A stretch of DNA of 64,000 bases. Source: Squalus acanthias (lineage: Eukaryota). The notes beneath the pieces were generated by a model. That model was not told the origin of the DNA and ran no database searches. It worked only from the letters and a program-made list of their open reading frames with translations. Positions 12,795-42,315 of this stretch are shown here, one piece after another. A program made the position numbers and the translations under genes. Each line of letters starts with the position of its first letter. The first letter of the stretch is position 1. The stretch covers positions 30,690,001-30,754,000 of the forward strand of contig CM059449.1 of assembly GCA_030390025.1 (NCBI GenBank), read 5' to 3'.

Positions 12795-15700
12795 CATAGC
12801 ATAGAGCATAGAAGATAGGAGCAGGAGTAGGCCATTCGGCCCCTCGAGCCTGCTCCGCCATTTAATGAGATCATGGCTGATCATCCAAATTCAGTATCCT
12901 GTTCCTGCTTTCTCCCCATATCCCTTTATCCCTTTAGCCTTAAGAAATATATCTATCTCCTTCTTGAATATATTTAATGAATTGGCCTCAACTGCCTTCT
13001 GTGGTAGAGAATTCCACAGGTTCACCACTCTCTGGGTGAAGAAATTCCTCCTCATCTCAGTCCTAAATGGCTTACCCCTTATCCTTAGACTGTGACCTCT
13101 GGTTCTGGACTCCCCCGCCATTGGGAACATCCTTCCTGCATCTAGTCTATCTAATCCTGTTACAATTTTATAAGTTTCAATGAGATCCCCTCTCATTCTT
13201 CTAAACTCTAGCGAATATTAGCCTAATCGACCCAATCTCTTTTCATACGTCATTCTTGCCATCCCAGGTATCAGTCTGGTGAATCTTCGCTGCACTCCCT
13301 CCATGGCAAAAACATCCTTCCTCAGATAAGGCGACCAAAACTGCACACAATACTCAAGGTGTGGTCTCACCAAGGCCTTGTACAACTGCAGCAAGACATC
13401 CTTGCTCCTGTACTCGAATCCTCTCGCTATAAAGGCCAACATACCATTTGCCTTCTTAACCGCCTGCTGCACCTGCATGCTTACCTTCAGCGACTGGTGC
13501 ACAAGGACTCCCAGATCTTGTTGCACTTCCCCTTTTCCCAATCTATTGCTGTTCAGATAATAATCTGTCTTCCTGTTTTTGCCACCAAAGTGGATAACCT
13601 CGCATTTATCCACATTATACTGCATCTGCCATGCATCTGCCCAATCACCCAACCTGTCCAAATCATACTGGAGTTTCTCTGCATCCTCCTCACAGCACAC
13701 ACGCCCACCCAGCTTTGTGTCGTCTGCAAACTTAGAGATATTACATCTAGTTCCCTCGTCCAGATCATTAATATATATTGTGAATAGCTGGGGTCCAAGG
13801 ACCGATCCCTGCGGTACCCCACTAGTCACTGCCTGCCACTCGGAAAAAGACCCGTTTATTCCAACTCTTTGCTTCCTGTCTGCCAACCAGTTCTCTATCC
13901 AAATCAGTACCTTACCCACAATCCCATGTGCTTTAACTTTGCACGCTAATCTCTTATGCGGGACCTTATCGAAAGCCTTTTGAAAGTCCAACTACACCAC
14001 ATCCACTGGTTCGCCCTTATCTATTCTACCAGTTACATCCTCAAAAAATTCAAGTAGATTAGTCAAGCATGATTTACCTTTTGTAAATCCATGTTGACTT
14101 TGTCTGATCCTGTCACTGTTTTCCAAGTGTTCTGCTATTACATCTTTTATAATGGACTCTAGCATTTTGCCCACTACCGATGTCAGGCTTACCTTTTTTT
14201 CTCTACCACCTTTTTTAATAGTGGGATTACATTAGCTACCCTCCAATCCATGGGAACTGTTCCAGAGTCTATAGAATTTTGAAAGATGACCAGCAATGCA
14301 TCTACTATTTCTAGGGCCACTTCCTTAAGTACCCTAGGATGTAGATTATCAGGCCCTGGGGATTTATCAGCCTTCAATCCCATCAATTTCCCTAACACCA
14401 TTTCCCTACAAATACTGATTTCATTCAATTCCTCCCTCTCATTAGACCATATGTTCCCCAACATCTCTGGGAGTTTATTTGTGTCCTCCTTTGTGAAGAC
14501 AGAACCAAAGTATGTATTTAATTGGTCTGCCATTTCTTTGTTCCCCATTATAAATTCCCCTGATTCTGACTGCAAGGGACCTATGCTTGACTTCACCAAT
14601 CTTTTTCTCTTCACATTTCTATAGAAGCTTTTACAGTCAGTTTTTATGTTTCCTGCAAGCTTACTCTCATATTCTATTTTCCCCCTCTTAATTAATCCCT
14701 TTGTCCTCCTTTGCTGAATCCTAAACTGCTCCCAATCCTCAGGTTTGCTGCTTTTTCTGGCCAATTTATATGTCCTCTCCTTGGATCTTATGCTATCCCT
14801 AATTTCCCTTGTTAGCCATGGTTGAGTCACCTTTTTTGTTTTATTTTTATGCCAAACAGGGATGAACAAATTCTGTAGTTCATCCATGTGATCTTTAAAT
14901 GTTTGCCATTGCCTATCCACCGTCAACCCTTTAAGTAACGCTCCCCAATCCATCCTAGCCAACTCGCGCCTCATACCATCATAGTTTCCTTTATTTAAAT
15001 TCAGGACCCAAGGGGGAAAAATTCAGTTGGTTGCACCTCCCGTTAGCGCCTTAAGAGGGCGCTAATGGGGCGCAAAGCAACTAGCACCTGGGCGCGGTGA
15101 TGTTTGCGCCGCTCGTGAAATTAACTAGACATTTTGCGGCAGTGCTAAACAGTACCGCCACGATCTCCTGTGCCGGCAGATCGTGACGTCAGTCGAGTGC
15201 GCAATGCCCCGGTAGCGCACTGGAGTGGATATTGAGTGGCGCCCCCTGCCTTACCACCTGCCACTAGCAACGACAGGTTGAGGGGAGCGTTTTGCAGTCA
15301 GGAAGGGACTGGGGGAGCGCTATTTAAAGGCTACAGCTTCCTGCCTTTTTTTGTTGGTGCCATTTTTGAACTACGCATTCTGAGAGAGAGAGGGAGAGAC
15401 TTCTGGAGAGATTCAACGTTGTGTGAAGGAGTTTTGGGTAATGAGCAGCACTTTGCAGGTTCATTTTGATTTGCCCTTCCTTGTATCGATTTAAAAGAGA
15501 CTGTGGGGGCTGCCTTCTGAGCTCTTTCCCTGGGCCTCTCCATTGTTCTTTCCAGCAGATTTGATGTACAGGTCTCTCCAGGCTGAGATTCAAGGCTGCA
15601 ATGAGCAGGATGTGGATGGAGAGCAAGATCAACCCTCCCCTTTAAGAACTGGGCGATGCCTTTGTGTCTGTGTTCCATTGCTGACTGACATTACATGAGC

Positions 15701-16142: not shown

Positions 16143-18034
16143 GTAAGAGCCCATGGGATCCAGGGCAATTTGGCACATTGGATCCAAAATTGGCTTAGTG
16201 GCAGGAGGCAGAGGGTGATGGTCGAAGGTTGTTTTTGTGACTGGAAGCCTGTGTCCAGTGGTGTACCGCAGGGATCGGTGTTGGGTCCTTTGCTGTTTGT
16301 AGTGTACATTAATGATTTAGATATGAATGTAGGAGGTATGATCAGTAAGTTCGCAGATGACACGAAAATTGGTGGAGTGGTAAATAGCGAGGAGGGAAGC
16401 CTCAGGCTACAGGATGATATAGACGGGTTGGTCAGATGGGCAGAACAGTGGCAAATGGAATTTAACCCTGAAAAGTGTGAGGTGATGCATTTTGGGAGGA
16501 CTAACAAGGCAAGGGAATACACAATGAATGGTAGGACCCTAGGAAGGACAGAGGATCAGAGGGACCTTGGTGTGCATGTACATAGATCCCTGAAGGCAGC
16601 AGGACAGGTAGATAAGGTGGTTAAAAAGGCATATGGGATACTTGCCTTCATTAGCCGAGGCATAGAATATAAGAGCAGGGATGTTATGATGGAGCTGTAC
16701 AAAATGCTAGATAGGCCACAGCTGGAATACTGTGTGCAGTTCTGGTCGCCACACTATAGGAAGGATGTGATTGCATTGGAGAGGGTGCAGAGGAGATTCA
16801 CCAGGATGTTACCTGGGCTGGAGTGTTTCAGCTATGAAGAGAGACTGGACAGGCTGGGGTTGTTTTCCTTAGAGCAGAGAAGGCTGAGGGGGGACCTGAT
16901 TGAGGTGTACAAAATTATGAGGGGCATAGATAGGGTAGATAGAAAGGAACCTTTCCCCTTAGTAGAGGGGTCAATAACCAGGGGGCATAGTTTCAAGGTA
17001 AGGAGCAGGAGGTTTAGAGGGGATTTGAGGAAAAGCTTTTTCACTCAGAGGGTGGTTGGAATCTGGAACTCACTGCCTGAAAGGGTGGTAGAGGCAGGAG
17101 CACCTCACAACATTCAAGAAGCATTTAGATGAGCACTTGAAACACCATAGCATACAAGGCTACGGACCAAGTGCTGGAAAATGGGATTAGAATAGACAGA
17201 GCTTGATGGCCGGCGCAGACACGATGGGCCGAAGGGCCTCTTTTTGTGCTGTATAACTCTATGCCTCTATGACTTGCAGCCAATCCATACTCACTGCACA
17301 TCCTGGCAACTTGTCACGAGATCCATGACTCTCTGTGAAAAGATGTTCCTCCTGGCATCTGACCTACTGCTGAGGTTAAAGTTCAGCAGAGCGGGTCATG
17401 AATGGAACCTCAACGTTACACAACTGCTTCACAACACAGGAACTGGAGGGGGCCATTCAGCCCCTCGAGCCTGCTCCGCCATTCCCCTAGATCATGGCTG
17501 ATCTGTACCTCAACACCATTTCCCCGCCTTTGCTCCATATCCCCCGATACCCTTACCTAACACAAATCGATCTATCTCAGTCTTGAAAGCTCCAATTGAC
17601 CCCCAGCATCCACAGAGTTTTGGGGAAGAGTTTTCCAGATTTCTACCACCCTTGATGTGAAAAAGTGCTTCCTGATTTCACTCCTGGATGGCCAAGCTCT
17701 AACTTTAAGATAATGCCACCCTGTTCTGGATTCCCCCACCAGAGGATATTGTTTCTTTGAAACTCCCTCCCTAATCTTCTCCGCCTCTCTACCTCTCTCT
17801 CTCCTCCTTTAAGACGTTCCTGAAAACCATCCTCTTTGACCAAGCTTTTGGTCACCTGCCCTAATATCTCCTTATGTAGCTCAGTGTCAAATTTTGTTTG
17901 GTAATCGCTCCTGTGAAGCACCTTGGGACTTTTTAACGACGTTAAAGGCGTTGTATAAATACAAGTTGTTGTATCGACCTGGTCGAATCCTTTTCACATT
18001 GTAAATTGATTTGAGTATTAATTTTTCCACCAAG

Positions 18035-18310
18035 GTGTTTTCTTTGTCCAGGGAATGTGTGGCTGTGAAGTGAGCGGTGATAATTCCACGGACGGGTTTA
18101 TAAAGTTGGGATATGAGCGGGAGGATGCGTATGTTTTTGACAAGGACAGAACGCGTTGGATCGCGCTGAATCCAGAGTTCCAGGCGTTTGCGGATCGGTG
18201 GAATGCCAACACCTTCATGAACAAGTACTTCAAGGCTCTGTTGGAGAAGGACTGCGTGAAATGGCTGCTGATATACCTTGAGTGTGGGCGAGGAGCACTA
18301 GAGAGGATAG
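18035..18310 (+). CDS. MHC class I heavy chain, exon 3 (alpha2 domain)
   Basis: Acceptor CAAG at 18031-18034 gives phase 1 and 276 nt; donor GTACGT at 18311. Translation SVFFVQGMCGCE..GYERED..W..RW..LEKDCVKWLLIYLECG contains the C101-C164 pair, Q96, D122, W133, W147, W167 and Y171. Confidence 0.93.
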
Positions 18311-19184
18311 GTACGTTGTGGGAACGGCGACTGGGGGGGGGGGGGAGCGCTCCCGATGGCTCAGGTGGTACAGACCAGGTTTTTAGTCCCGGGTCTGTCC
18401 TGAGCCAGCTGTTCTTGGACAGGGTGGCAGTAAAGTGGAGCTGCAATTGGCCTGAATACCCCTTGCTTCGGGGCTGGCGGCGGGGGGGGGGGTGGGGGTA
18501 GGAATTCGGGCAGGTGACCTAAATCCGATGACTTACCCAGTCACCTTGGCTGGAAAGTGCCTGCACGTTGACATCGAGTGAGGATAGGATTAGAGTAAGC
18601 TGTGATACCCCCTTGGTTGAATAGCTTCCTCACTGTGTAGGCTCACCCGTGAACACTGGGTACTTGTGTGCGGTACAAGAGTGCGGCTTTACACAGAATT
18701 ACGTCGAATGTGCAGCGCGGGAAGAGGCTATTCGGCTCAACTGGTCTACGCCAGAGATTATGCTTCACACGAGCCTCCTCCCACCCCAATTCAGCGTATC
18801 CTTCCATTCCTTTCTCCCTCATGTGTTTATCCAGCTTCCCCTTAAAAGTATCTCTGTTATTTGCCTCAACCACTCCCTGTGGTAGCGAGTTCCACATTCT
18901 CACCACTCTCTGGGTAAAGAAGTTTCTCCTGAATTCCTTATTGGATTTATTAGTGACTATCTTATATTCATGGCCCCTAGTTCTGGTCTTGCCCACTCGT
19001 GGAAACATCTTCTCTACGTCTACCCTATCAAACCCTTTCATAATTTTAACGACCTCTATTAGGTCACCCCTCAGCCCTCTCTTTCCTAGTGCTGTATCTC
19101 AGCATCGGTCACCTGTCTCCAGCGGAGAAAGTTGATGGTGGTTGGGGAAAAGATAAAAGAACAAATAGAGAACTTCTCACGAAT

Positions 19185-20079
19185 ACAAAAAGTAAAATAC
19201 TGCGGATGCTGTAAATCTGAAATAAAAAGAGAAAAGGCTGGAAGTACTCAGCAGCATCTGTGGAGAGAGAAACAGAGTTAACGGCCCTGAAATTCGCCTC
19301 TCCGGCTTGCCGCGGGGGTAAGGATCGCGCGCGCACTTACCTACCGCGCCTGCCATTGACCTCTGGGCCCACAGGAACTTCAGCTCCTGGGACTCCTGCA
19401 GCTGCCGGCGCGCAGTGCTTGCGTGTTCCAGGGGCGCAGTTAGTGCGATGCGTCCCCTGGGATCACGTGGGCCATGGAGAGCCAATGGCAGCAGACCATC
19501 TTTCATTCATAGATTTGACAGGAAGACCTGTCAAATCTATGAATTGAAATCGGCCCCAAAAGAACAGCTAAACTTAAAATAATTTTTTTTAAAACATCAC
19601 ATTTATAAAATAACTATAAGTTAAATAAATTAACTACTTGAAACAAAACTTTAAATGTTTGAAAAAATTAAAATACTTTTTAACAGTGCTAAAAATAAAC
19701 TTAACTTTCTTTAAAGTATCTAAAAAAGATAAACCTGTTGAAAAAATTTTAAATTATAATTAATTAACCACTTACCTTGTTGAAAACGGGTCCTGTGCCT
19801 CCTTTTTAAAAGCGTAGGTTCTTCAATACTTACCCTCCCGGAGAAACCTGAAAAAAACCCTAAGTTTGCTGCGTGCGCCCAGCCTCTCCCGCTCACGCGG
19901 TTCACCTATGAACCGCCCCCTTCACCAGACCGGAAGTTCCGGTTTCCCGCGCATGCGCAGTGCATGCAGGAAACCGGCACTTCAGGACGCCTTACGGGTG
20001 AGTACACAGTGTGTACTCACCTGGGAAGGGCTGAATTTTTGGCCCAACGTTTCAGGTCGCTGACCTTTCATCAGAACTC
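19185..20079 (-). mobile_element. Penelope-type terminal repeat fragment with a minimal hammerhead ribozyme, split by a MITE
   Basis: Rejoining 20046-20079 with 19275-19279 gives, on the - strand, GAGTT-CTGATGA-A-AGGTC-AGC-GACCT-GAAA-CG-TT-AACTC: hammerhead core with stem I GAGTT/AACTC and stem II AGGTC/GACCT. Confidence 0.7.
19283..20045. mobile_element. MITE (PIF/Harbinger-like), second family
   Basis: Imperfect TIRs GGCCCTGAAATTCGCC ... GGGCTGAATTTTTGGCCC; 3 bp duplication AAC (19280-19282 and 20046-20048); GC-rich arms and a very AT-rich core. Confidence 0.8.
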
Positions 20080-20115
20080 GTCACTGACTTTAGTCTTTGT
20101 TTCACTCTCTCTCAG

Positions 20116-20388
20116 CCGCCCCTGAGGTGCTAATTGGGGATCGGAGCGACAGGGAGCGAGGGCTGAGGCTCTCCTGCCTCGTGACGGGCTTTTACCCACG
20201 GCCTATCGACGTGACCTGGCTGAGAAACGGCGAGGAGGTCCCCGACGTCGAATCCAGCGACCTGCTGCCCAACCAGGATGCGACGTTTCGGGTGATGAAA
20301 ACGATTGAGCTGAGCGGAGACGACGGGGAGAGATACTCCTGTCACATCGAGCACGCCAGCCTCCTGCTGGGGCTCGACGTACCCTGGG
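20116..20388 (+). CDS. MHC class I heavy chain, exon 4 (alpha3, C1-set Ig domain)
   Basis: Acceptor TCTCTCTCAG ending 20115, donor GTAAGT at 20389, 273 nt, phase 1/1. Motifs LSCLVTGFYPRPIDVTWLRNG, LLPNQDATF and YSCHIEHASL. Confidence 0.96.
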
Positions 20389-20524
20389 GTAAGTGGCAGG
20401 TTGGAGAGGGCCGCATGCTTCCCCGCGCCCCCCCCGTGCCTCGGGGTGCTCACTCAGTCCGCCCACTCGGAGCGGGAAGTCACAGGGTCCGAGGTAGCTG
20501 GTCTCACCTGTCAGGGTCACACAT

Positions 20525-22275: not shown

Positions 22276-23120
22276 ATTTCCTTGGGTGCTACAATGTAGA
22301 CCATGTCCAGCTGTTTCAGCTGGTCCACAACAGCAGAACGAGAGGACATGGCCTGTGCTTGAAGGGGGAATAAATTCAAAAGAGTCCTGCGGAAACAATA
22401 TTTGAGTGAGCGAGCGATCAGTCTGTGGAAGAGGCTCCCCAGGGAGATGGTGGAATCTGATAGTGTTTGATTCCTTCAAATGCAAATTGGAGAGATTTCA
22501 TTCAAAAAATAACATTTTTGGGATACAGTGTGTGAGTGATTTGAGACATGAGATGTGGTGAGTGTAGCAGGCTTGGGAAGGACAAGTGGGGGAGAAATTC
22601 AGTATCGCCCCGTTTGGGGCGCAATTATCGGCCGGGCGCAAAGCTTAGCGCCTGGTGCTTATTATCGCCTCCGACTGCAAACTTGGCTTCTATCGCCCCT
22701 GGCGGTGATTGGAGCGCCAAATCAGGCGCTACATACCTCTCTTAAGGTGCTAACCCCGAGGAGCGAGGCACTACCTCAGAGCGCTGGCGAAGCTCATGTG
22801 ATGTCAGTCAGCAATGGAACACAGACACACTGGCGCCGGCCAGTTCTTAAAGGGGAGGCTCGATCTTGCTCTCCATCCACACCCTGCTCATTGCAGCCTT
22901 GAATCTCGGCCTGGAGAGACCTGTACGTCAATTCTGCTGGAAAGAACAATGGAGAGGCCCAGGGAAAGAGCTCAGAGTGCAGCCCCCATCGTCTCTTCTA
23001 AATCGATGCAAGGAAGGTCAAATCAAAATGAACCTACAAAGTGCTGCTCAGTACCCAAAACTCCTTCACACAACGCTGAATCTCTCCAGAAGTCTCTCTC
23101 TCTCTTTCAGAATGCATGGT

Positions 23121-26100
23121 ATATCATTTAACTGTAGAGTAATTAGTGGGATTGATTTGATTTAATTTAATTTGAATTAATTAAAGGGTAAGTCATGGCA
23201 GGAGAGCTCGGCCCCGTGGTATGCTCCTCCTGCGCTATTTGGGAAATCGGGGACACTTCCTGTGCCCCTGACAACCATGTGTGCAGGAAGTGTATCCAGC
23301 TACAGCTACTGGCAGACCGCATTGCGGCGCTGGAGCTGCGATTGGATACATACTGGACCATTCGCGATGCTGAGGACGTCGTGGATATCACGTTTGAGCA
23401 GTTGGTCACACCGCAGGCAAAGGATGCACAGGCAGAAAGGGAATGGGTGACCAACAGACAGAGTAGTAGGCGCAGGCAGGTAGTGCAGGAGTCCCCTGTG
23501 GACATCCCCCTCTTAAACAGATATACCACTTATACCACTTTGAATACTGTTGGGGGGGATGGCTTATCAGAGGAAGGCAGCAGCAGACAACTTCCTGGCA
23601 CCAGGGGTGGCTCTGTTGCACGGGACGGGAGGAAAAAGAGTGGAAGAGCTATAGTGATAGGGGATTCTATTGTAAGTGGAATAGATAGGCGTTTCTGCGG
23701 CCGCAAACGAGACTCCAGGATGGTGTGTTGCTTCCCTGGTGCAAGGGTCAAGGATGTCTCAGAGCGGCTGCAGAACATTTTGGAAGGGGAGGGTGAACAG
23801 CCAGTTGTCATGGTGCATATAGGTACCAACGATATAGGTAAAAAAGGGGTTGAGGTCCTAAAAGCTGAATATAGGGAGTTAGGAGGTAAATTAAAAAATA
23901 GGACCTCAAAGGTAGTAATCTCAGGATTGCTACCAGTGCCACGTGCTAGTCAGAGTAGAAATAGAAGGATATTTCAGATGAATACGTGGTGAGAGGAATG
24001 GTGCAAGGGGGAGGGATTCAAATTCCTGGGACATTGGAACCAGTTCTGGGGGAGGTGGGACCAGTACAAACCGGACGGATTGTACCTGGGCAGGTCATGG
24101 ACCGATGTCCTAGGGGGAGTGTTTGCTAGTGCTCTGGGGGAGGGTTTAAACTAAAATGGCAGGGGGTTGGGAACCTGAGCAGGGAGACAGAGGAAAGGGA
24201 AACAAGGATAAAAGCAAAAGATAGGAAGGAGAAAAACAAAAGTGGCAGTGAGAGAAATCAACGGTTTAAATCAAACATGGCTACAGTAAATAATAATTCT
24301 GATAGGTCTAAGAGCGTTCAAAAAACAAGCCTGAAGGCTTTGTGTCTTAATGCAAGGAGCATTCGGAATAAGGTGGATGAATTAGCTGCGCAAATAGAGG
24401 TAAACGAATATGATTTGATTGGGATTACGGAAACATGGCTCCAGGGTGGCCAAGGCTGGGAACTCAACATCCAGGGGTATTCAATATTCAGGAAAGATAG
24501 GCAAAAAGGAAAGGGAGGTGGCGTAGCATTGCTGGTTAAAGAGGGGATTAATACAATTGTAAGGAAGGATATTAGCTCTGATGATGTGGAATCTGTATGG
24601 GTAGAACTGAGAAATACCAAGGAGTAGAAAACGTTTGTGGGAGTGGTATATAGACCTTCAAACAGTAATGCTGAGGTTGGGGATGGCATTAAAAGGGAAA
24701 TTAGAGAAGCGTGCAATAAGGGCACAGCAGTCATCATGGGTGACTTTAATCTACATATAGATTGGGCTAACCAAATTAGTAACGATACTGTGGAGGAGGA
24801 ATTCCTGGAGTGTTTACGGGATGGTTTCCTGGACCAATATGTCGAGGAACCAACCAGAGATCAGGCCATCTTAGTCTGGGTATTATGTAATGAGAAAGGA
24901 TTAATTAGCAATCTCGTTGTACGAGGCCCCTTGGGTCGGAGCGATCATAATATGATAGAATTCTTCATTAAGATGGAGAGTGAAGTAGTTGACTCAGAGA
25001 CTAGGGTCCGGAATTTAAATAAAGGAAACTACGATGGTATGAGGAGCGAGTTGGGTAGGATTGATTGGGGAATGTCACTCAAAGGGTTGACGGTGGATAG
25101 GCAATGTCAAACATTTAAAGACCGCATTCATGAACTACAGAATTTGTTCATCCCAGTTTGGCATAAGAATAAAACAAGAAAGGTGACTCAACCGTGGCTA
25201 ACAAGCGAAATTAGGGATAGCATAAGATCCAACGAGAGGACATATAAATTGGCCAGAAAAAGCAGTAAACCTGAGGATTGGGAGCAGTTTAGGATTCAAC
25301 AAGGGAGGACAAAGGGATTAATTAAGAAGGGGAAATAGAATATGAGAGGAAGCTTTCAGGGAACATAAAAACTGACTGTAAAAGCTTTTATAGATATGTG
25401 AAGAGAAAAAGATTGGTGAAGTCAAGCGTAGGTCCCTTGCAGTCAGAATCAGGGAAACTTATAATGGGGAACAAAGAAATGGCAGACCAATTAAATACAT
25501 ATTTTGGTTCTGTCTTCACAAAGGAGGACACAAATAACCTCCCAGAAATGTTGGGGAACATAGGGTCTGATGAAAGGGAGGAACTGAAAGAAATCAGTAT
25601 TTGTAGGGGAATGGTGTTAGGGAAATTGGCGGGATTGAAGGCCGATAAATCCCCAGGGCCTGATAATCTACATCCTAGGGTACTTAAGGAAGTGGCCCTA
25701 GAAATAGTAGATGCATTGCTGATCATCTTCCAACATTCGATGGAATCTGGAACAATACCCATGGATTGGAGGGTAGCTAATGTTACCCCACTATTCAAAA
25801 ATGATGGTAGAGAGAAAATAGGGAATTACAGACCGGTAAGCCTGACATTGGTAGTGGGGAAAATGCTAGAGTCCATTATAAAAGGTGTAATAACAGAGCA
25901 CTTGGAAAACAGTGACAGGATCGGACAAAGTCAACATGGATTTACAAAAGGTAAATCGTGCTTGACTAATCTACTGGAATTTTTTGAGGATGTAACTGGT
26001 AAAATAGATAAGGGAGAACCAGTGGATGTGGTGTATTTGGACTTTCAAAAGGCTTTCGATAAGGTCCCGCATAAGAGATTAGCGTGTAAAGTTAAGGCAC

Positions 26101-27280
26101 ATGGGATTGGGGGCAAGGTATTGACTTGGATAGAGAACTGGTTGGCAGACAGAAAGCAAAGAGTTGGAATAAACGGATCTTTTTCCGAGTGGCAGGCAGT
26201 GACTAGTGGGGTACCGCAGGGATCGGTCCTTGGACCCCAGCTATTCACAATATATATTAATGATCTAGACAAGGGAACTTGATGTAATATCTCCAAGTTT
26301 GCAGACGACACAAAGCTGGGTGGGCGTGTGTGCTGTGAGGAGGATGCCGAGAAACTCCAGGATGATTTGGACAGGTTGGGTGATTGGGCAGAAGCATGGC
26401 AGATGCAATATAACGTGGATAAATGCGAGGTTATCCACTTTGGTGTCAAAAACAGGAAGGCAGATTATTATCTGAATGGCAATAGATTGGGAGAAGGGGA
26501 AGTGCAACGAGACCTGGGTGTCCTTGTGCACCAGTCGCTGAAGGTAAGCATGCAGGTGCAGCAGGCGGTTAAGAAGGCAAATGGTATGTTGGCCTTCGTA
26601 GCGAGAGGGTTTGAGTACAGGAGCAAGGATGTCTTGCTGCAGTTGTACAGGGCCTTGGTGAGACCACATCTTGAGTATTGTGTGCAATTTTGGTCACCTT
26701 ATCTGAGGAAGGAGGTTCTTGCCATGGAAGGAGTTCAGCGAAGATTCACCAGACTGATACCTGGGATGGCAGGAATGACGTATGAGGAGAGATTGGGTCG
26801 ATTGGGCTTATAATCGCTGGAGTTTAGAAGAATGAGAGGGGATCTCATTGAAACTTGTAAAATTCTGACAGGACTGGACAGACTAGATGCAGGAAGGATG
26901 TTCCCGATGGCGGGGTAGTCCAGAACCAGGGGTCACAGTCTAAGGATAAGGGTGAGTTGGTCCAACGCCGGCATCTCCACATGATAAGGATAAGGGGTAA
27001 GCCATTTAGGACAGAAATGAGGAGGAATTTCTTCACCCAGAGAGTGGTGAACCTGTGGAATTCTCTACCACAGAAGGCAGTAGAGGCCAATTCATTAATA
27101 TATTCAAGAAGGAGTTGGATATATTTCTTAAGGCTAAAGGGATCAAGGGATATGGGGAGAAAGCAGGGACAGAGTTCTGAATTTGGATGATCAGCGATGA
27201 TCTCATTAAATGGCGGAGCGGGCTCGAGGGGCGAAATGGCCTAGTCCTGCTCCTATCGTCTATGTTTCTATGTTTCTATG
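23121..27280 (+). mobile_element. Near full-length but defective CR1 LINE (family A): ORF1 zinc finger + SGNH esterase, ORF2 APE endonuclease + RT
   Basis: ORF1 from 23195 (CSSC..CRKC, coiled coil, IVIGDSIV, HIGTND). ORF2 motifs [28 protein letters not shown] and [10 protein letters not shown]. Stops at 23990, 24625, 26280 and 26811, frameshift near 25335; (TTTCTATG)n tail; TGGT on both flanks. Confidence 0.95.
26953..26984 (+). mobile_element. 32 nt tail-only footprint of the Penelope-like element
   Basis: TGAGTTGGTCCAACGCCGGCATCTCCACATGA between two copies of TAAGGATAAGGG (26941-26952 and 26985-26996); absent from sister CR1 copies (e.g. ~31912); 21/23 match to the reverse complement of 38198-38220. 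Confidence 0.85.
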
Positions 27281-27709
27281 TGGTGCAAAAATGTCGCCGA
27301 CAAAAAAAGGCAGGAAGCGGTCGCCTTTAAATAGCGCTCCCCTAGTCCCTTCCCGACTGCAAAACGCTCCCCTCAACCTGTCGTTGTTAGCGGCAGGCGG
27401 AAAGGCAGGGGGCGCCACTCAATATGCGGTCCGGGGCGTTGCGCGCTCGACTGACGTCATGATCTGTGGGCGCAGGAGATCGTGGCGGTAGTGTTTAGCG
27501 CCGCCGCAAAATGTCTGGTCAAATTCGCGAGTGGCGCAAACATCGCCGCGCCCGAGCGCTAGTTGCTTTGCGCCCCATTAGTAGCCTCTTAGGGCGCTAA
27601 CAGGAGGCGCAAACCGACCGAATTTTCCCCCCACTGACTTTAGGACCTATGGTTCTCAAAGCTCTCCACCACTGGGGTTTTCCTCACCTCATGTCTAGCT
27701 GTTAAAGAA

Positions 27710-30700
27710 AGAAATAAACAATTGCATTCATATGTCGCATTTCACAGTCGCAGGAGGTCACTTCTGAAGTGTAATCACTGTTATAACATAGGCAACACAG
27801 CAGCCAATTTTATGCATAGCAAGATGCCACAAACAGCAATGAGATAATGATCAGATAATTTGTTTTAGTGATATTGGTTGAGGAACGATGATTGGCCACG
27901 ACATAGGGAGAACTCTCAAGCTCCTTTTAGAAATAGTGCCATGGGATATTTTATGTCCACCTGAGAGGGCAGACGGCCTCAGTTTAACGTCTCATCAGAA
28001 AGTTCTCACCACCGACAGTGTAGCGCTCCCTCAGTACTGCCCCTCTGACAGTGCAGCGCTCCCTCAGTACTGCCCCTCCGACAGTGCAGCGCTCCCTCAG
28101 TACTGCCCCTCCGACAGTGCAGCGCTCCCTCAATACTGCCCCTCTGACAGTGCAGCGCTCCCTCAGTACTGCCCCTCCAACAGTGTAGCGCTCCCTCAGT
28201 ACTGCCCCTCCGACAGTGCAGCCCTCCCTCAGTACTGCCCCTCCGACAGTGTAGCGCTCCCTCAGTACTGCCCCTCCGACAGTGCAGCGCTCCCTCAGTA
28301 CTGGCCCTCTGACAGTGCAGCACTCCCTCAGTACTGCCCCTCCAACAGTGTAGCGCTCCCTCAGTACTGCCCCTCCGACAATGCAGCGCTCCCTCAATAC
28401 TGCTCCTCTGACAGTGTAACGCTCCCTCAGTACTGCCCCTCTGACAGTGCAGCGCTCCCTCAGTACTGGCCCTCTGACAGTGCAGCACTCCCTCAGTACT
28501 GCCCCTCCAACAGTGTAGCGCTCCCTCAGTACTGCCCCTCTGACAATGCAGCGCTCCCTCAATACTGCTCCTCTGACAGTGCAGCACTCCCTCAGTACTG
28601 CTCCTCTGACAGTGCAGCACTCCCTCAGTACTGCTCCCTCCGACAGTGCAGCACTCCCTCAGTACTGCCCCTCCGACAGTGCAGCTCACCCTCAGTACTG
28701 CCCCTCCGACAGTGCAGCGCTCCCTCAGTACTGCCCCTCCGACAGTGCAGCTCACCCTCAGTACTGCCCCTCCGACAGTGCAGCGCTCCCTCAGTACTGC
28801 CCCTCCGACAGTGCAGCGCTCCCTCAGTACTGCCCCTCCGACAGTGCAGCGCTCCCTCAGTACTGCCCCTCCGACAGAGCATCGCTCCCTCAGTACTGCT
28901 CCCTCCGACAGTGCAGCACTCCCTCAGTACTGCCCCTCCGACAGTGTAGCGCTCCCTCAGCACTGCCCCTCCGACAGTGCAGCGCTGCCTCAATACTGCC
29001 CCTCCGACAATGCAGTGCTGCCTCAGTACCGCCCCTCTGACAGTGCAGTGCTGCCTCAGTACTGCCCCACCGACAGTGCAGCACTCCCTCAGTATTGCCC
29101 CTCCAACAGTGCAGCACTCTCTCAGCACTGCCCCTCCGACAGTGCAGCGCTCCCTCAGTACTGCCCCTCCGACAGTGTAGCGCTCCCTCAGTACTGCCCC
29201 TCCGACAGTGCAGCACTCCCTCAGTACTGCCCCTCCAACAGAGCAGCACTCCCTCAGTACTGCCCCTCCGACAGAGCAGCACTCCCTCAGTACTGCCCCT
29301 CCGACAGTGCAGCTCTCCCTCAGTACTGCCCCTCCGACAGAGCAGCACTCCCTCAGTACTGCCCCTCCGACAGTGCAGCTCTCCCTCAGTACTGCCCCTC
29401 CGACAGAGCAGCACTCCCTCAGTACTGCCCCTCCGACAGTGCAGCGCTCCCTCAGTACTGCCCCTCCGACAGTGCAGCTCTCCCTCAGTACTGCCCCTCC
29501 GACAGAGCAGCACTCCCTCAGTACTGCCCCTCCGACAGTGCAGCTCACCCTCAGTACTGCCCCTCCGACAGAGCATCGCTCCCTCAGTACTGCCCCTCCG
29601 ACAGTGCAGCACTCCCTCAGTACTGCCCCTCCGACAGTGCAGCTCTCCCTCAGTACTGCCCCTCCGACAGTGCAACTCTCCCTCAGTACTGCCCCTCCGA
29701 CAGTGCAGCTCACCCTCAGTACTGCCCCTCCGACAGAGCATCGCTCCCTCAGTACTGCTCCCTCCGACAGTGCAGCGCTCCCTCAGTACTGCCCCTCCAA
29801 CAGTGCAGCGCTCCCTCAGTACTGCCCCTCCGACAGTGCAGCTCACCCTCAGTACTGCCCCTCCGACAGAGCATCGCTCCCTCAGTACTGCCCCTCCGAC
29901 AGTGCAGCACTCCCTCAGTACTGCCCCTCCGACAGTGCAGCACTCCCTCAGTACTGCCCCTCCGACAGTGCAGCGCTCCCTCAGTACTGCCCCTCCGACA
30001 GTGTAGCGCTCCCTCAGCACTGCCCCTCCGACAGTGCAGCGCTGCCTCAATACTGCCCCTCCGACAATGCAGTGCTGCCTCAGTACCGCCCCTCTGACAG
30101 TGCAGTGCTGCCTCAGTACTGCCCCACCGACAGTGCAGCACTCCCTCAGTATTGCCCCTCCAACAGTGCAGCACTCTCTCAGCACTGCCCCTCCGACAGT
30201 GCAGCGCTCCCTCAGTACTGCCCCTCCGACAGTGTAGCGCTCCCTCAGTACTGTGTCTCCGACAGTGCAGCACTCCCTCAGTACTGCCCCTCCAACAGAG
30301 CAGCACTCCCTCAGTACTGCCCCTCCGACAGAGCAGCACTCCCTCAGTACTGCCCCTCCGACAGTGCAGCTCTCCCTCAGTACTGCCCCTCCGACAGTGC
30401 AGCTCTCCCTCAGTACTGCCCCTCCGACAGTGCAGCTCTCCCTCAGTACTGCCCCTCCGACAGTGCAGCTCTCCCTCAGTACTGCCCCTCCGACAGTGCA
30501 ACTCTCCCTCAGTACTGCCCCTCCGACAGTGCAGCGCTCCCTCAGTACTGCCCCTCCAACAGTGTAGCGCTCCCTCAGTACTGCCCCTCCGACAGTGCAG
30601 CGCTCCCTCAGTACTGCCCCTCCAACAGTGTAGCGCTCCCTCAGTACTGCCCCTCCGACAGTGCAGCGCTCCCTTAGTACTGCACTGCAGTTTCAGCCTA

Positions 30701-33090: not shown

Positions 33091-36000
33091 TTTTTTCTTT
33101 CAAAAGCATATTCCTACCTCCCTTGTAAATGTTTCACTGTGTTACACTGAGGATAAGCCCCTTCAATTGCTCATATAGCACAATTAGTACATGGACTGCC
33201 CAATCTAGAACTAAGACATACAGACCAGAGGGTCCCAGGTTCAACCCCGGGCCTGCCCTGAGGCAGGGGGTTTGAACTGGCCAGCCAGCCTTGTTCTTAA
33301 ATGGAGAATGCACAACAGGGCATGTTAGAATGGTGGCACAGAGAGGGTTACTCCACAGAAGGAGGCCCATTGTGTCCGTGCTCCTTGTTCTGCGTCAATC
33401 CCACTGCCCTGCTTTCTCCCCATAGTCCTGTATCAATCCCAAACTAATCCCACTGCCCCACTCTCTCCCCATAGTCCTGTATCAATCCCAAACTAATCCC
33501 ACTGCCCTGCTCTCTCCCCATAGCCCTGTATCAATCCCAAACTAATCCCACTGCCCCGCTCTCTCCATAGCCCTGTATCAATCCCCAACTAATCCCACTG
33601 CCCCACTCTCTCCCCATAGTCCTGTATCAATCCCACACTAATCCCACTGCCCCACTCTCTCCATAGCCCTGTATCAATCCCAAACTAATCCCACTGCCCA
33701 ACTCTCTCCACAGCTCTGTACTAATCCCACTGCCCCACTTTCTCTCCACAGCCCTGTATCAATCCCACACTAATCCTACTGCCCCACTCTCTCCACAGCC
33801 CTGTATCAATCCCAAACTAATCCCACTGCCCCAATCCCTCCACAGCCCTGTATCAATCCCAAACTAATCCCACTGCCCCACACTCTCCCCATAGTCCTGT
33901 ATCAATCCCACACTAATCCCACTGCCCCACTCTCTCCACAGCCCTGTATCAATCCCAAAATAATCCCACTGCCCCACGCTCTCCCCATAGTCCTGTATCA
34001 ATCCCACACTAATCCCACTGCCCCACTCTCTCCACAGCCCTGTATCAATCCCAAAATAATCCCACTGCCCCACTCTCTCCCCATAGTCCTGTATCAATCC
34101 CACACTAATCCCACTGCCCCATTCCCTCCACAGCCCTGTATCAATCCCAAACTAATCCCACTGCCCCAATCCCTCCACAGCCCTGTATCAATCCCAAACT
34201 AATCCCACTGCCCCACACTCTCCCCATAGTCCTGTATCAATCCCACACTAATCCCACTGCCCCACTCTCTCCACAGCCCTGTATCAATCCCAAAATAATC
34301 CCACTGCCCCACGCTCTCCCCATAGTCCTGTATCAATCCCACACTAATCCCACTGCCCCACTCTCTCCACAGCCCTGTATCAATCCCAAAATAATCCCAC
34401 TGTCCCTCTCTCTCCCCATAGTCCTGTATCAATCCCACACTAATCCCACTGCCCCAATCTCTCCATAGTCCAGTATCAATCCCACACTAATCCCACTGCC
34501 CCACTTTCTCCCCACAGCCCTGTATCAATCCCACACTAATCCTACTGCTCCACTCTCTCCCCATAGCCCGGTATCAATCCCAAACTAATCCCACTGCCCC
34601 ACTCTCTCCACAGCCCTGTATCAATCCCAAACTAATCCCACTGCCTCACTCTCTCCCCATAATCCTGTATCAATCCCACACTAATCCCACTGCCCCATTC
34701 CCTCCACAGCCCTGTATCAATCCCACACTAATCCCACTGCCCCGCTCTCTCTCCACAGCCCTGTATCAATCCCACACTAATCCCACTGCCCCACTCTCTC
34801 CCCATAGTCCTGTATCAATCCCACACTAATCCCACTGCCCCACTCTCTCCACAGCCCTGTATCAATCCCACACTAATCCCACTGCCCCACTCTCTCCCCA
34901 TAGTCCTGTATCAATCCCACACTAATCCCACTGCCCCACTCTCGTCCATAGTCCGGTATCAATCCCAAACTAATCCCACTGCCCCACTCTCTCCACAGCC
35001 CTGTATCAATCCCAAACTAATCCCACTGCCCCACTCTCTCCCCATAGTCCTGTATCAATCCCACACTAATCCCACTGCCCCATTCCCTCCACAGCCCTGT
35101 ATCAATCCCATACTAATCCCACTGCCCCACTCTCTCCACAGCCATGTATCAATCCCAAACTAATCCCACTGTCCCTCTCTCTCCCCATAGTCCTGTATCA
35201 ATCCCACACTAATCCCACTGCCCCACTCTCTCCACAGCCCTGTATCAATCCCACACTAATCCCACTGCCCCACTTTCTCCCCACAGCCCTGTATCAATCC
35301 CACACTAATCCTACTGCTCCACTCTCTTCCCATAGCCCGGTATCAATCCCAAACTAATCCCACTGCCTCACTCTCTCCCCTAGTCCTGTATCAATCCCAC
35401 ACTAATCCCACTGCCCCATTCCCTCCACAGCCCTGTATCAATCACAAACTAATCCCACTGCCCCACTCTCCCCACAGCCCTGTATCAATCCCACACTAAT
35501 CCCACTGCCCCACTCTCTCCCCATAGTCCTGTATCAATCCCACACTAATCCCACTGCCCCACTCTCGTCCATAGTCCGGTATCAATCCCACACTAATCCC
35601 ACTGCCCCACTCTTTCCACAGCCCTGTATCAATCCCAAACTAATCCCACTGCCCCACTCTCTCCCCATAGTCCTGTATCAATCCCACACTAATCCCACTG
35701 CCCCACTCTCTCCACAGCCCTGTATCAATCCCAAACTAATCCCACTGCCCCACTCTCTCCCCACAGCCCTGTATCAATCCCACACTAATCCCACTGCCCC
35801 ACTCTCTCCACAGCCCTGTATCAATCCCACACTAATCCCACTGCCCCACTTTCTCCCCACAGCCCTGTATCAATCCCACACTAATCCTACTGCCCCACTC
35901 TCTCCACAGCCCTGTATCAATCCCAAACTAATCTCACTGCCCCACTCTCTCCCCATAGTCATCTATCAATCCCACACTAATCCCACTGCCCCATTCCCTC

Positions 36001-38283
36001 CACACCCCTGTATCAATCCCAAACTAATCCCACTGCCCCACTCTCTCCACAGCCCTGTATCAATCCCACACTAATCCCACTGCCCCACTCTCTCCCCATA
36101 GTTCTGTATCAATCCCACACTAATCCCACTGCCCCACTCTCTCCACAGCCCTGTACTAATCCCACTGCCCCACTTTCTCCCCACAGCCCTGTATCAATCC
36201 CACACTAATCCGACTGCCCCACTCTCTCCCCATAGTCCTGTATCAATCCCACACTAATCCCACTGCCCCACTCTCGTCCATAGTCCTGTATCAATCCCAC
36301 ACTAATCCCACTGCCCCACTCTTTCCACAGCCCTGTATCAATCCCAAACTAATCCCACTGCCCCACTCTCTCCCCATAGTCCTGTATCAATCCCACACTA
36401 ATCCCACTGCCCCACTCTCTCCACAGCCCTGTATCAATCCCAAACTAATCCCACTGCCCCACTCTCTCCACAGCCCTGTATCAATCCCAAACTAATCCCA
36501 CTGCCCCACTCTCTCCCCATAGTCCTGTATCAATCCCACACTAATCCCACTGCCCCACTCTCTCCACAGCCCTGTATCAATCCCAAACTAATCCCACTGC
36601 CCCACTCTCTCCACAGCCCTGTATCAATCCCACACTAATCCCACTGCCCCACTCTCTCCCCATAGTCCTGTATCAATCCCACACTAATCCCACTGCCCCA
36701 CTCTCTCCACAGCCCTGTATCAATCCCAAACTAATCCCACTGTCCCTCTCTCTCCCCATAGTCCTGTATCAATCCCACACTAATCCCACTGCCCCAATCT
36801 CTCCATAGTCCAGTATCAATCCCACACTAATCCCACTGCCCCACTTTCTCCCCACAGCCCTGTATCAATCCCACACTAATCCGACTGCTCCACTCTCTCC
36901 CCACAGCCCGGTATCAATCCCAAACTAATCCCACTGCCCCACTCTCTCCACAGCCCTGTATCAATCCCAAACTAATCCCACTGCCTCACTCTCTCCCCAT
37001 AATCCTGTATCAATCCCACACTAATCCCACTGCCCCATTCCCTCCACAGCCCTGTATCAATCCCAAACTAATCCCACTGCCCCACTCTCTCCACAGCCCT
37101 GTATCAATCCCACACTAATCCCACTGCCCCACTCTCTCCCCATAGTCCTGTATCAATCCCACACTAATCCCACTGCCCCACTCTCTCCACAGCCCTGTAT
37201 CAATCCCACACTAATCCCACTGCCCCACTCTCTCCCCATAGTCCTGTATCAATCCCACACTAATCCCACTGCCCCACTCTCGTCCATAGTCCGGTATCAA
37301 TCCCAAACTAATCCCACTGCCCCACTCTCTCCACAGCCCTGTATCAATCCCAAACTAATCCCACTGCCCCACTCTCTCCCCATAGTCCTGTATCAATCCC
37401 ACACTAATCCCACTGCCCCATTCCCTCCACAGCCCTGTATCAATCCCATACTAATCCCACTGCCCCACTCTCTCCACAGCCCTGTATCAATCCCAAACTA
37501 ATCCCACTGTCCCTCTCTCTCCCCATAGTCCTGTATCAATCCCACACTAATCCCACTGCCCCACTCTCTCCACAGCCCTGTATCAATCCCACACTAATCC
37601 CACTGCCCCACTTTCTCCCCACAGCCCTGTATCAATCCCACACTAATCCTACTGCTCCACTCTCTTCCCATAGCCCGGTATCAATCCCAAACTAATCCCA
37701 CTGCCTCACTCTCTCCCCATAGTCCTGTATCAATCCCACACTAATCCCACTGCCCCATTCCCTCCACAGCCCTGTATCAATCACAAACTAATCCCACTGC
37801 CCCACTCTCCCCACAGCCCTGTATCAATCCCACACTAATCCCACTGCCCCACTCTCTCCCCATAGTCCTGTATCAATCCCACACTAATCCCACTGCCCCA
37901 CTCTCGTCCATAGTCCGGTATCAATCCCACACTAATCCCACTGCCCCACTCTTTCCACAGCCCTGTATCAATCCCAAACTAATCCCACTGCCCCACTCTC
38001 TCCCCATAGTCCTGTATCAATCCCACACTAATCCCACTGCCCCACTCTCTCCACAGCCCTGTATCAATCCCAAACTAATCCCACTGCCCCACTCTCTCCC
38101 CACAGCCCTGTATCAATCCCACACTAATCCCACTGCCCCACTCTCTCCACAGCCCTGTATCAATCCCACACTAATCCCACTGCCCCACTTTCTCCCGATG
38201 CGGAGATGCCGGTGTTGGACTGGGGTGGACAAAATTGAGAGGTCGCACAACACCAGGTTATAGTCCAACAGTTTTATTTGAAA

Positions 38284-38321
38284 TCACAAGCTTTCGGAAC
38301 TATCGCTCCTTCCTCAGGTGA
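38284..38321 (-). ncRNA. Mirror copy of the minimal hammerhead ribozyme
   Basis: Exact reverse complement of 38939-38976. Confidence 0.75.
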
Positions 38322-38938
38322 AGTAAATTGGATACAGAATCGTCAGAGCATATATAGATGGAAAAAAAAGCATGTGTACTTTACAATTGCAGACCAATAA
38401 ATTAAATCATCCTGACTATCTGCCGAGGTGTGATAAAGTTAATTAAGTCAGCCAGGAAGGTACCACATCAAAAGACATAGCAAGATACAACTGAGACAAT
38501 GAGGTGAAGTCGCAGGGGTTCTAACGTGTCAAAAGCTGCCGTCTGTATGTAAAACGAAAAGCTTTAAAAAAAAAAATTTACTTTTTTACTGGGAAAATTT
38601 TTACTTTTTTACTGGGAATCACATCTTGTTCACAGATGTGATTCCCAGTAAAAAAGTAAAAATTTTCCCAGTAAAAAAGTAAATTTTTTTTTTTAAAGCT
38701 TTTCGTTTTACATACAGACGGCAGCTTTTGACACGTTAGAACCCCTGCGACTTCACCTCATTGTCTCAGTTGTATCTTGCTATGTCTTTTGATGTGGTAC
38801 CTTCCTGGCTGACTTAATTAACTTTATCACACCTCGGCAGATAGTCAGGATGATTTAATTTATTGGTCTGCAATTGTAAAGTACACATGCTTTTTTTTCC
38901 ATCTATATATGCTCTGACGATTCTGTATCCAATTTACT

Positions 38939-38976
38939 TCACCTGAGGAAGGAGCGATAGTTCCGAAAGCTTGTGA
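38939..38976 (+). ncRNA. Minimal type I hammerhead ribozyme motif
   Basis: TCAC-CTGAGGA-A-GGAGC-GATA-GTTCC-GAAA-GC-TT-GTGA: CUGANGA and GAAA core, stem I TCAC/GTGA, stem II GGAGC/GTTCC, palindromic AAGCTT in place of stem III; predicted cut after 38972. Confidence 0.75.
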
Positions 38977-41900
38977 TTTCAAATAAAACTGTTGGACTAT
39001 AACCTGGTGTTGTGCGACCTCTCAATTTTGTCCACTTTCTCCCCACAGCCCTGTATCAATCCCACACTAATCCTACTGCCCCACTCTCTCCACAGCCCTG
39101 TATCAATCCCAAACTAATCTCACTGCCCCACTCTCTCCCCATAGTCATCTATCAATCCCACACTAATCCCACTGCCCCATTCCCTCCACACCCCTGTATC
39201 AATCCCAAACTAATCCCACTGCCCCACTCTCTCCACAGCCCTGTATCAATCCCACACTAATCCCACTGCCCCACTCTCTCCCCATAGTTCTGTATCAATC
39301 CCACACTAATCCCACTGCCCCACTCTCTCCACAGCCCTGTACTAATCCCACTGCCCCACTTTCTCCCCACAGCCCTGTATCAATCCCACACTAATCCGAC
39401 TGCCCCACTCTCTCCCCATAGTCCTGTATCAATCCCACACTAATCCCACTGCCCCACTCTCGTCCATAGTCCTGTATCAATCCCACACTAATCCCACTGC
39501 CCCACTCTTTCCACAGCCCTGTATCAATCCCAAACTAATCCCACTGCCCCACTCTCTCCCCATAGTCCTGTATCAATCCCACACTAATCCCACTGCCCCA
39601 CTCTCTCCACAGCCCTGTATCAATCCCAAACTAATCCCACTGCCCCACTCTCTCCACAGCCCTGTATCAATCCCAAACTAATCCCACTGCCCCACTCTCT
39701 CCCCATAGTCCTGTATCAATCCCACACTAATCCCACTGCCCCACTCTCTCCACAGCCCTGTATCAATCCCAAACTAATCCCACTGCCCCACTCTCTCCAC
39801 TGCCCTGTATCAATCCCAAACTAATCCCACTGCCCCACTCTCTCCACAGCCCTGTATCAATCCCACACTAATCCCATTGCCCCACTCTCTCCCCATAGTC
39901 CTGTATCAATCCCACACTAATCCCACTGCCCCACTCTCGTCCATAGTCCTGTATCAATCCCACACTAATCCCACTGCCCCATTCTCGTCCATAGTCCGGT
40001 ATCAATCCCAAACTAATCCCACTGCCCCACTCTCTCCACAGCCCTGTATCAATCCCAAACTAATCCCACTGCCCCACTCTCTCCACAGCCCTGTATCAAT
40101 CCCACACTAATCCCATTGCCCCACTCTCTCCCCATAGTCCTGTATCAATCCCACACTAATCCCACTGCCCCACTCTCGTCCATAGTCCTGTATCAATCCC
40201 ACACTAATCCCACTGCCCCACTCTTTCCACAGCCCTGTATCAATCCCAAACTAATCCCACTGCCCCACTCTCTCCCCATAGTCCTGTATCAATCCCACAC
40301 TAATCCCACTGCCCCACTCTCTCCACAGCCCTGTTTCAATCCCAAACTAATCCCACTGCCCCACTCTCTCCCCATAGCCCTGTATCAATCCCACACTAAT
40401 CCCACTGCCCCACTCTCTCCACAGCCCTGTATCAATCCCAAACTAATCTCACTGCCCCACTCTCTCCACAGCCCTGTATCAATCCCAAACTAATCTCACT
40501 GCCCCACTCTCTCCCCATAGTCCTGTGCTAATCCCACTCCCTCCACAGTCCTGTATCAATCCCACACTAATCCCACTGCCCCACTCTCTCCCCATAGTCC
40601 TGTATCAATCCCACACTAATCCCACTGCCCCACTCTCTCCCCATAGTCCTGTATCAATCACAAACTAATCCCACTGCCCCACTCTCTCCACAGCCCTGTA
40701 TCAATCCCAAACTAATCCCACTGCCCCACTCTCTCCACATAGCCCTGCATTAATCCCACACTAATCCCACTGCCCCACTCTCTCCACAGCCCTGTATCAA
40801 TCCCAAACTAATCTCACTGCCCCACTCTCTCCACAGCCTTGTATCAATCCCAAACTAATCTCACTGCCCCACTCTCTCCCCATAGTCCTGTGCTAATCCC
40901 ACTCCCTCCACAGCCCTGTATCAATCCCACACTAATCGCACTGCCCCACTCTCTCCCCATAGTCCTGTATCAATCCCACACTAATCCCACTGCCCCACTC
41001 TCTCCCCATAGTCCTGTATCAATCACAAACTAATCCCACTGCCCCACTCTCTCCACAGCCCTGTATCAATCCCAAACTAATCCCACTGCCCCACTCTCTC
41101 CCCATAGTTCTGTATCAATCCCACACTAATCCCACTGCCCCACTCTCGTCCATAGTCCGGTATCAATCCCAAACTAATCCCACTGCCCCACTCTCTCCAC
41201 TGCCCTGTATCAATCCCAAACTAATCCCACTGCCCCACTCTCTCCACAGCCCTGTATCAATCCCACACTAATCCCATTGCCCCACTCTCTCCCCATAGTC
41301 CTGTATCAATCCCACACTAATCCCACTGCCCCACTCTCGTCCATAGTCCTGTATCAATCCCACACGAATCCCACTGCCCCACTCTTTCCACAGCGCTGTA
41401 TCAATCCCAAACTAATCCCACTGCCCCACTCTCTCCCCATAGTCCTGTATCAATCCCACACTAATCCCACTGCCCCACTCTCTCCACAGCCCTGTTTCAA
41501 TCCCAAACTAATCCCACTGCCCCACTCTCTCCCCATAGCCCTGTATCAATCCCACACTAATCCCACTGCCCCACTCTCTCCACAGCCCTGTATCAATCCC
41601 ACACTAATCCCACTGCCCCACTCTCTCCCCACAGCCCTGTATCAATTCCACACTAATTCTACTGCCCCACTCTCTCCACAGCCCTGTATCAATCCCAAAC
41701 TAATCTCACTGCCCCACTCTCTCCCCATAGTCCTCTATCAATCCCACACTAATCCCAGTGCCCCATTCCCTCCACACCCCTGTATCAATCCCAAACTAAT
41801 CCCACTGCCCCACTCTCTCCACAGCCCTGTATCAATCCCACACTAATCCCACTGCCCCACTCTCTCCCCATAGTCCTGTATCAATCCCAAACTAATCCCA

Positions 41901-42115
41901 CTGCCCCACTCTCTCCCCATAGTCCTGTATCAATCCCACACTAATCCCACTGCCCCACTCTCTCCACAGCCCTGTATCAATCCCAAACTAAACCCACTGC
42001 CCCACTCTCTCCCCATAGTCCTGTATCAATCCCACACTAATCCCACTGCCCCACTCTCTCCACAGCCCTGTATCAATCCCAAACTAAAATGATATTGATC
42101 TTGGGCAACACGGTG

Positions 42116-42315
42116 NNNNNNNNNNNNNNNNNNNNNNNNNNNNNNNNNNNNNNNNNNNNNNNNNNNNNNNNNNNNNNNNNNNNNNNNNNNNNNNNNNNNN
42201 NNNNNNNNNNNNNNNNNNNNNNNNNNNNNNNNNNNNNNNNNNNNNNNNNNNNNNNNNNNNNNNNNNNNNNNNNNNNNNNNNNNNNNNNNNNNNNNNNNNN
42301 NNNNNNNNNNNNNNN
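42116..42315. other. Assembly gap (200 N)
   Basis: Run of exactly 200 N, i.e. a fixed-size scaffold join of unknown true length. Confidence 0.99.

Follow-up and report, generated by a model that had tools for sequence, protein, structure and literature searches.

Penelope-like elements (PLEs) have been described as highly 5′-truncated insertions (PMC8557442) in which an inverted truncated copy is accompanied by a tail of 30–40 bp on one side only (PMC8557442, PMC3846280, PMC2377424), and minimal hammerhead motifs have been described for metazoan PLEs (PMC4209133). According to the accessible parts of these papers, the way in which PLEs form inverted arms and tails is still an open question (PMC8557442, PMC11167929); self-priming has been proposed for the inverted junctions, and the printed target-site duplications of other PLEs measure 8–10 bp (PMC3846280). 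For PAc, a Poseidon-type PLE of Anolis carolinensis (Frangieh et al. 2024, PMC11167929), the accessible text reports reverse transcription (RT) start sites measured at 111–118 nt past hammerhead stem II, with the PAc ORF starting at stem II. RT of PAc starts at two sites that delimit the tail, cutting and extension affect both strands of the target, and the protein is predicted to act as a dimer (PMC11167929). In a different system, that of R2, snap-back ahead of 5′ joining has been measured as one class of insertion junction, as far as the available part of that study describes (Zhang et al. 2024, PMC11371274). No description of tail-only or collapsed PLE insertions was found in the largely open-access literature searched; earlier work on Drosophila Penelope outside that coverage may bear on the point.

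A hairpin-shaped element in a satellite array

We analysed a stretch of 64 kb from Squalus acanthias (64,000 nt, hereafter the window), which contains a long hairpin at 38197–39035 and a short insert within a LINE about 11 kb away. The hairpin consists of the following parts:

38185–38196, plus strand: target-site duplication of the hairpin, copy adjoining the tail, CCACTTTCTCCC
38197–38224, minus strand: unpaired tail of the predicted PLE, 28 nt
38213–38270, minus strand: perfect 9-bp internal inverted repeat (38270–38262 with 38221–38213, 40-nt loop), predicted stem
38225–38626, minus strand: sense arm (pseudo-LTR part), 402 nt
38285–38320, minus strand: minimal hammerhead motif (CUGANGA, bulge, 5-bp stem II, GAAA, palindromic AAGCUU)
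38627–38633: spacer, 7 nt
38634–39035, plus strand: inverted arm, 402 nt, 100% complementary
near 38940–38975, plus strand: mirror copy of the hammerhead motif
39032–39043, plus strand: second copy of the duplication, CCACTTTCTCCC, its first 4 nt common to the arm end (microhomology)

The minimal hammerhead, the 402-nt inverted arm, the one-sided tail of 28 nt and a 3′ end whose distance from hammerhead stem II (113 nt) agrees with that in PAc indicate that the hairpin is the end of a PLE, the coding part of which is absent from the window. No reverse transcriptase or endonuclease of this PLE family was found in the 64 kb, and both the hairpin arm and the short insert are devoid of an ORF, with stops in all three sense frames. 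Each arm holds one hammerhead with a bulge, a 5-bp stem II and a palindromic helix III, at 38317 on the minus strand and at 38943 on the plus strand. It is a motif by sequence and a putative ribozyme; the Rfam hammerhead models gave no match at E up to 5, and the only Rfam matches were to a generic hairpin (miRNA model), below the gathering score. The architecture of an inverted 5′-truncated copy with a one-sided tail, a described structure that the sequence-only reading had not recognized as a PLE end, is present, its 28 nt being slightly under the printed 30–40 bp. The duplicated 12-mer of the hairpin occurs singly in seven other satellite units, and 4 of its 12 letters are also those of the arm end.

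The hairpin occupies one unit of a 47-bp array, and sibling units at 35270 and 37608 have the same context and are empty. Near the hairpin's centre (38577–38683), a direct repeat of 19 nt, spaced by 4 nt, is found in each arm, and a separate short symmetry marks the apex; the repeats may mark template slippage just before the fold-back. Three satellites are present in the window, at 33427–42087 (47-bp, with higher-order structure), 28012–30683 (33-bp) and 42316–64000 (22-bp), together with a gap of 200 N at 42116–42315.

A 32-nt insertion with the tail of the same family

The short insert lies near the end of the broken ORF2 of a LINE which we take to be a CR1, the name that the sequence-only reading had also given it. 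An RVT_1 domain is recognizable at 25326–26279 (E 1.7e-24), and the copy differs from its agreeing paralogues at 15 of 488 columns (3.1%). The features of the host and the insert are:

22587–27280, plus strand: host CR1-type LINE with broken ORF2
26941–26952, plus strand: target-site duplication, left copy, TAAGGATAAGGG, single in the paralogues
26953–26959, plus strand: 7-nt junction segment, TGA followed by GTTG, without in-register match to the element (0/7)
26960–26982, plus strand: predicted PLE tail sequence, sense strand, 21/23 to positions 5–27 of the hairpin tail
26983–26984, plus strand: 3′-terminal GA (C in the hairpin here)
26985–26996, plus strand: target-site duplication, right copy

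The two copies of TAAGGATAAGGG at 26941–26952 and 26985–26996 are identical (12/12) and enclose 32 nt (26953–26984), which bears out the earlier observation of an insert flanked by the same sequence twice inside a CR1. When the host was aligned with its three close paralogues from the window (92.0, 94.5 and 94.6% identity), all three showed the same 44-nt gap and a single 12-mer; a fourth, more distant CR1 copy has one variant 12-mer only. The same 44-nt skip, with 10–12 letters fitting both sides, was found in contigs of all four sequencing runs used, out of 20 listed with a best share of 0.60; these contigs are CR1 paralogues and are not shown to be alleles, and the loose ends at both insert borders in these contigs correspond to the empty-site sequence. 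Because the paralogues lack exactly 44 nt at this position and the same skip recurs in the contigs, the 32-nt insert is confirmed as a true insertion with a 12-bp duplication, both copies of which are whole and stand exactly at the insert borders. Short target-site duplications, as expected of PLEs, are present at the sites of both the insert and the hairpin, 12 bp each and checked against empty paralogous sites. In the contigs of the four runs, the depth inside the insert bin is 0.1–0.7% of that of the preceding CR1 bin yet far above single copy, and cannot be read as contigs bearing the insert because CR1 ends run into it (CACA and G-T-x-A-G likenesses at the borders). No piece spanning the insert was among the matches listed for these contigs, which were swamped by CR1 paralogues.

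The reported match of the insert to the hairpin tail was reproduced: 26960–26982 equals the reverse complement of 38198–38220 at 21 of 23 positions, and this is the sole other site with at most five mismatches in the window. Shuffled inserts scored no more than 17/23 against the element in 150 of 150 shuffles, and the binomial expectation of a 21/23 match over the window is ~4e-5. Both mismatches are CG/CA transitions, and the 3′ ends of the insert and the hairpin coincide within 1–2 nt. The insert carries the tail of the hairpin's family, and "the same element" holds at the family level only. The insert differs from the hairpin tail at 3 of 24 positions, more than the 3% divergence of the host predicts (P ~0.03), so its source was probably a sister subfamily rather than the lineage of hairpin 38197–39035; two of these three differences, however, are of CpG type and could postdate the insertion. 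The description of the insert as a tail-only 32-nt scar of that element therefore stands in part: the tail match is real, but it covers just 23 of the 32 nt and lacks the first 4 nt of the tail, and the 7 nt at the 5′ end match nothing in register (0/7).

A chance tandem duplication was rejected as the insert matches a PLE tail, a DNA-transposon footprint as there are no terminal repeats and the sequence is that of a retroelement tail, and an insertion made by CR1 as the insert lacks a CR1 3′ end. Collapse of a hairpin during assembly was rejected by inference from the perfect hairpin assembled 11 kb away. Within the non-satellite part of the window, a scan for further short inserts flanked by direct repeats (10 or more) returned 13 pairs, none other with PLE sequence. 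Outside the window, pattern scans revealed no related loci in viral contigs, in prokaryote genomes or, with the 23-mer, in metagenomes. A scan of the metagenomes with a 19-mer returned 120 loci, none of which matched the arm or CR1; one of the 120 (L050, in GC-rich, bacterial-looking DNA) extended to 27 nt and one had a 10-nt flanking repeat, and the 19-mer loci were dropped as chance matches. Two AT-rich metagenome loci (L008 and L109) share a near-identical context around the 19-mer with no further match to the element and look like an unrelated animal repeat.

The surroundings of the host contain further repeats. A 350-nt repeat at 27280–27630 adjoins the CR1 3′ end and recurs at 15012–15374 (the copies agree at 85%); its high depth in all four runs shows that the family is present in many copies. 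At 19180–20080 there is another repeat that bears a hammerhead (motif at 20074, minus strand) but is distinct from the hairpin element. It is interrupted by ~750 nt of inserted sequence, the terminal inverted repeats of which are short and imperfect and which seems to have duplicated 3 bp (AAC); by its sequence this insert is like a small non-autonomous DNA transposon. Exon-like stretches at 18022–18501 and 20094–20400 match Pfam MHC_I (E 1e-14) and C1-set (E 4.6e-19), and their domain content indicates that an MHC class I-like gene, or a pseudogene of one, lies among the repeats.

Junction of the insert and its possible origins

In sense orientation, the insert reads duplication, TGA, GTTG, tail positions 5–27, GA, duplication. 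Its 5′ end is off the boundary between tail and arm and lies 4 nt inside the tail, and the 7 nt at 26953–26959 that replace the missing tail letters have no in-register match to the element (0/7). The last four of them, GTTG, are the reverse complement of the adjacent CAAC, a micro fold-back with a chance of 0.024 for a close loop and 0.074 anywhere in the core, and form a small symmetry, GTTGG-T-CCAAC, at the junction. The letters GTTG also occur in the element 40 nt upstream, in the 5′ strand of its 9-bp stem, and the 5′ break of the insert falls in the 3′ strand of that predicted stem. The pair probabilities of the stem are 0.27–0.75 (~0.6–0.75 for the core of the stem), and the 134-nt fold as a whole does not exceed shuffles in stability (z −0.31). 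TGAG at the start of the insert resembles the target's own continuation. The first-nick contexts of the insert and the hairpin have no common motif, and neither is ATT.

We consider it fairly probable that the insert arose by target-primed reverse transcription of the 3′ tail of a PLE, which stopped after ~25 nt, inside the predicted 9-bp RNA stem, and was closed by a short snap-back or an untemplated joint. The PLE GIY-YIG endonuclease would make staggered nicks 12 nt apart, and RT would begin at the element's usual internal start point and stop inside the stem that the tail forms with the sequence 40 nt upstream. The cDNA end would gain 4 nt by snap-back or by a jump to the other strand of the stem, together with 3 untemplated nt, and host repair would join it. 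Coinciding 3′ ends (1–2 nt) of the insert and the hairpin are expected from a fixed RT start and whole duplication copies at the borders are the normal product of one integration. Together with the messy 5′ joint, both are accounted for in one step by a target-primed reaction that stalled. The heavy 5′ truncation of PLEs, the hairpin's 113 nt within the PAc range, the break inside a predicted stem, and the precedents of R2 snap-back and proposed PLE self-priming also speak for this reading. The insert would then be a miniature sibling of the hairpin, formed by the same reaction with a fold-back after 25 instead of 430 nt, and would have been made by a sister subfamily, so that it would not be a descendant of the hairpin. 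Extreme 5′ truncation, which the sequence-only reading had named as its alternative, turns out to be the better fit. The reading of stalled RT refers to a single junction (n = 1), with a fold-back weakly beyond chance (0.024–0.074) and a stem with z −0.31, and the 7 nt at 26953–26959 could be true upstream sequence of an unseen subfamily. Two first-nick contexts with neither a common motif nor the ATT preferred by PAc, and a window devoid of an RT or endonuclease of the family, also count against it.

The origin proposed earlier was an insertion followed by collapse, in which the unstable palindrome was deleted from a long fold-back insertion and left duplication, tail and duplication. Cruciform cleavage or replication slippage would be the means by which the arms were removed. 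A perfect 402-bp hairpin of the same family with a 7-nt spacer is indeed present in the window, the length of the insert is close to that of the tail, and the accessible part of a review describes long palindromes as unstable in vertebrate cells (PMC8701086). GTTGG-T-CCAAC could be a small symmetric remnant, as GTTG equally fits a collapsed hairpin whose arm reached further into the tail; the 4-nt inverted piece fits only an arm ending elsewhere than that of the hairpin, namely 18 nt from the 3′ end, in contrast to 28 nt here and 30–40 nt in print, as far as the available text of PMC8557442 goes. If the stem were removed from 38197–39035, the tail should survive with all its 28 nt and the left duplication with 8 of its 12 letters, and partial loss should leave the outer-arm letters ACAAAATT beside the duplication, but the insert shows neither. 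Its 5′ break lies 4 nt into the tail and is followed outwards by 7 foreign nt, so that this one junction does not support a product of collapse from an insertion like 38197–39035. Slippage between the 12-bp copies would be expected to give a clean empty site rather than a scar, and a long perfect palindrome in mouse was mostly revised by small central deletions, with deletions making up 93% of 118 rearrangements in the accessible part of that review (PMC8701086). No arm sequence was among the loose ends listed at either junction, a weak point as these are 24 of ~1,800 rows. Taken with these points, collapse appears unlikely. The duplications are of the same length, as had been stated (12 at the insert and 12 at the hairpin, where 4 letters are shared with the arm end); this suggests that one integration machinery made both and does not separate collapse from truncation.

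The tail could also be a programmed product. If the PLE protein acts as a dimer whose two RT start sites are separated by the length of the tail, cDNA from the outer site would stop at or near the inner one and be sealed, and tail-only inserts would form a discrete class with no hairpin stage. The two RT starts of PAc with the tail between them, the cutting and extension of both strands and the predicted dimer (PMC11167929, in its accessible parts) agree with such a scheme, as does an insert length that matches the tail length. Since the break is 4 nt short of the tail/arm boundary of the hairpin family, and neither a second example in the window nor such a class in the literature searched was found, we regard a programmed origin as quite improbable. 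The junction contains a short foreign segment, TGAG is like the target's continuation and there is no nick motif in common, as would be expected if a scrap of PLE cDNA or RNA had been caught, independently of the endonuclease, at a staggered double-strand break with fill-in producing the duplication. Random capture of this kind explains neither a 3′ end at the element's natural end nor a duplication as long as that of the hairpin, which makes it very unlikely.

Under stalled target-primed RT, the insert is probably an ordinary, if unusually short, PLE copy of known kind; taken alone, it amounts to a truncated retro-insertion of the ordinary sort. It is conceivable, though doubtful, that shark-type genomes hold a discrete and abundant class of ~30-nt tail-only PLE insertions, formed by fold-back collapse or directly by two-start-site chemistry, that falls below repeat-annotation thresholds and records the geometry of the PLE integration complex in vivo. 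Such a genome-wide class, if real, would be worth reporting. If very short inserts pile up at the tail length, their 5′ junctions would be an in vivo map of RT pausing or hand-over and would show whether fold-back insertions are purged. A length peak at 25–32 nt alone would not be proof of collapse, since both an RNA stem and a second RT start site coincide with that position; the question turns on the letters at the junctions and on pairs of alleles.

Comparison with described elements

The window shares with PAc a hammerhead in the pseudo-LTR, a 3′ end at a matching distance (genomic 3′ ends 111–118 nt past stem II versus 113 here) and a tail defined by an internal RT start. However, PAc prefers ATT or AT-rich cuts, which are absent at the sites of both the insert and the hairpin, no ORF is present here, and the accessible text on PAc describes no tail-only insertion (PMC11167929). 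The Penelope of Drosophila virilis and the Naiad/Chlamys PLEs resemble the hairpin in their tails of 34–37 or 30–40 bp, the inverted 5′-truncated copy and the heavy 5′ truncation, whereas the tail here is 28 nt and the available parts of both papers describe no isolated tail (PMC2377424, PMC8557442). R2 belongs to another enzyme class and was studied with engineered templates, and the inverted piece here is only 4 nt, but in R2 snap-back, too, the cDNA end primes on itself before joining and yields an inverted segment at the 5′ junction (PMC11371274, in its accessible part). In the Penelope of Adineta vaga (Arkhipova et al. 2013, PMC3846280), duplications are 8–10 bp compared to 12 here, and the accessible part describes solo pseudo-LTRs but not tail-only inserts. 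On the other hand, the same source describes an inverted pseudo-LTR with a 31-bp one-sided tail, a palindromic junction ascribed to self-priming, short duplications, microhomology at 5′ joints and insertion into non-LTR elements, all of which are likenesses to the two insertions of the window.
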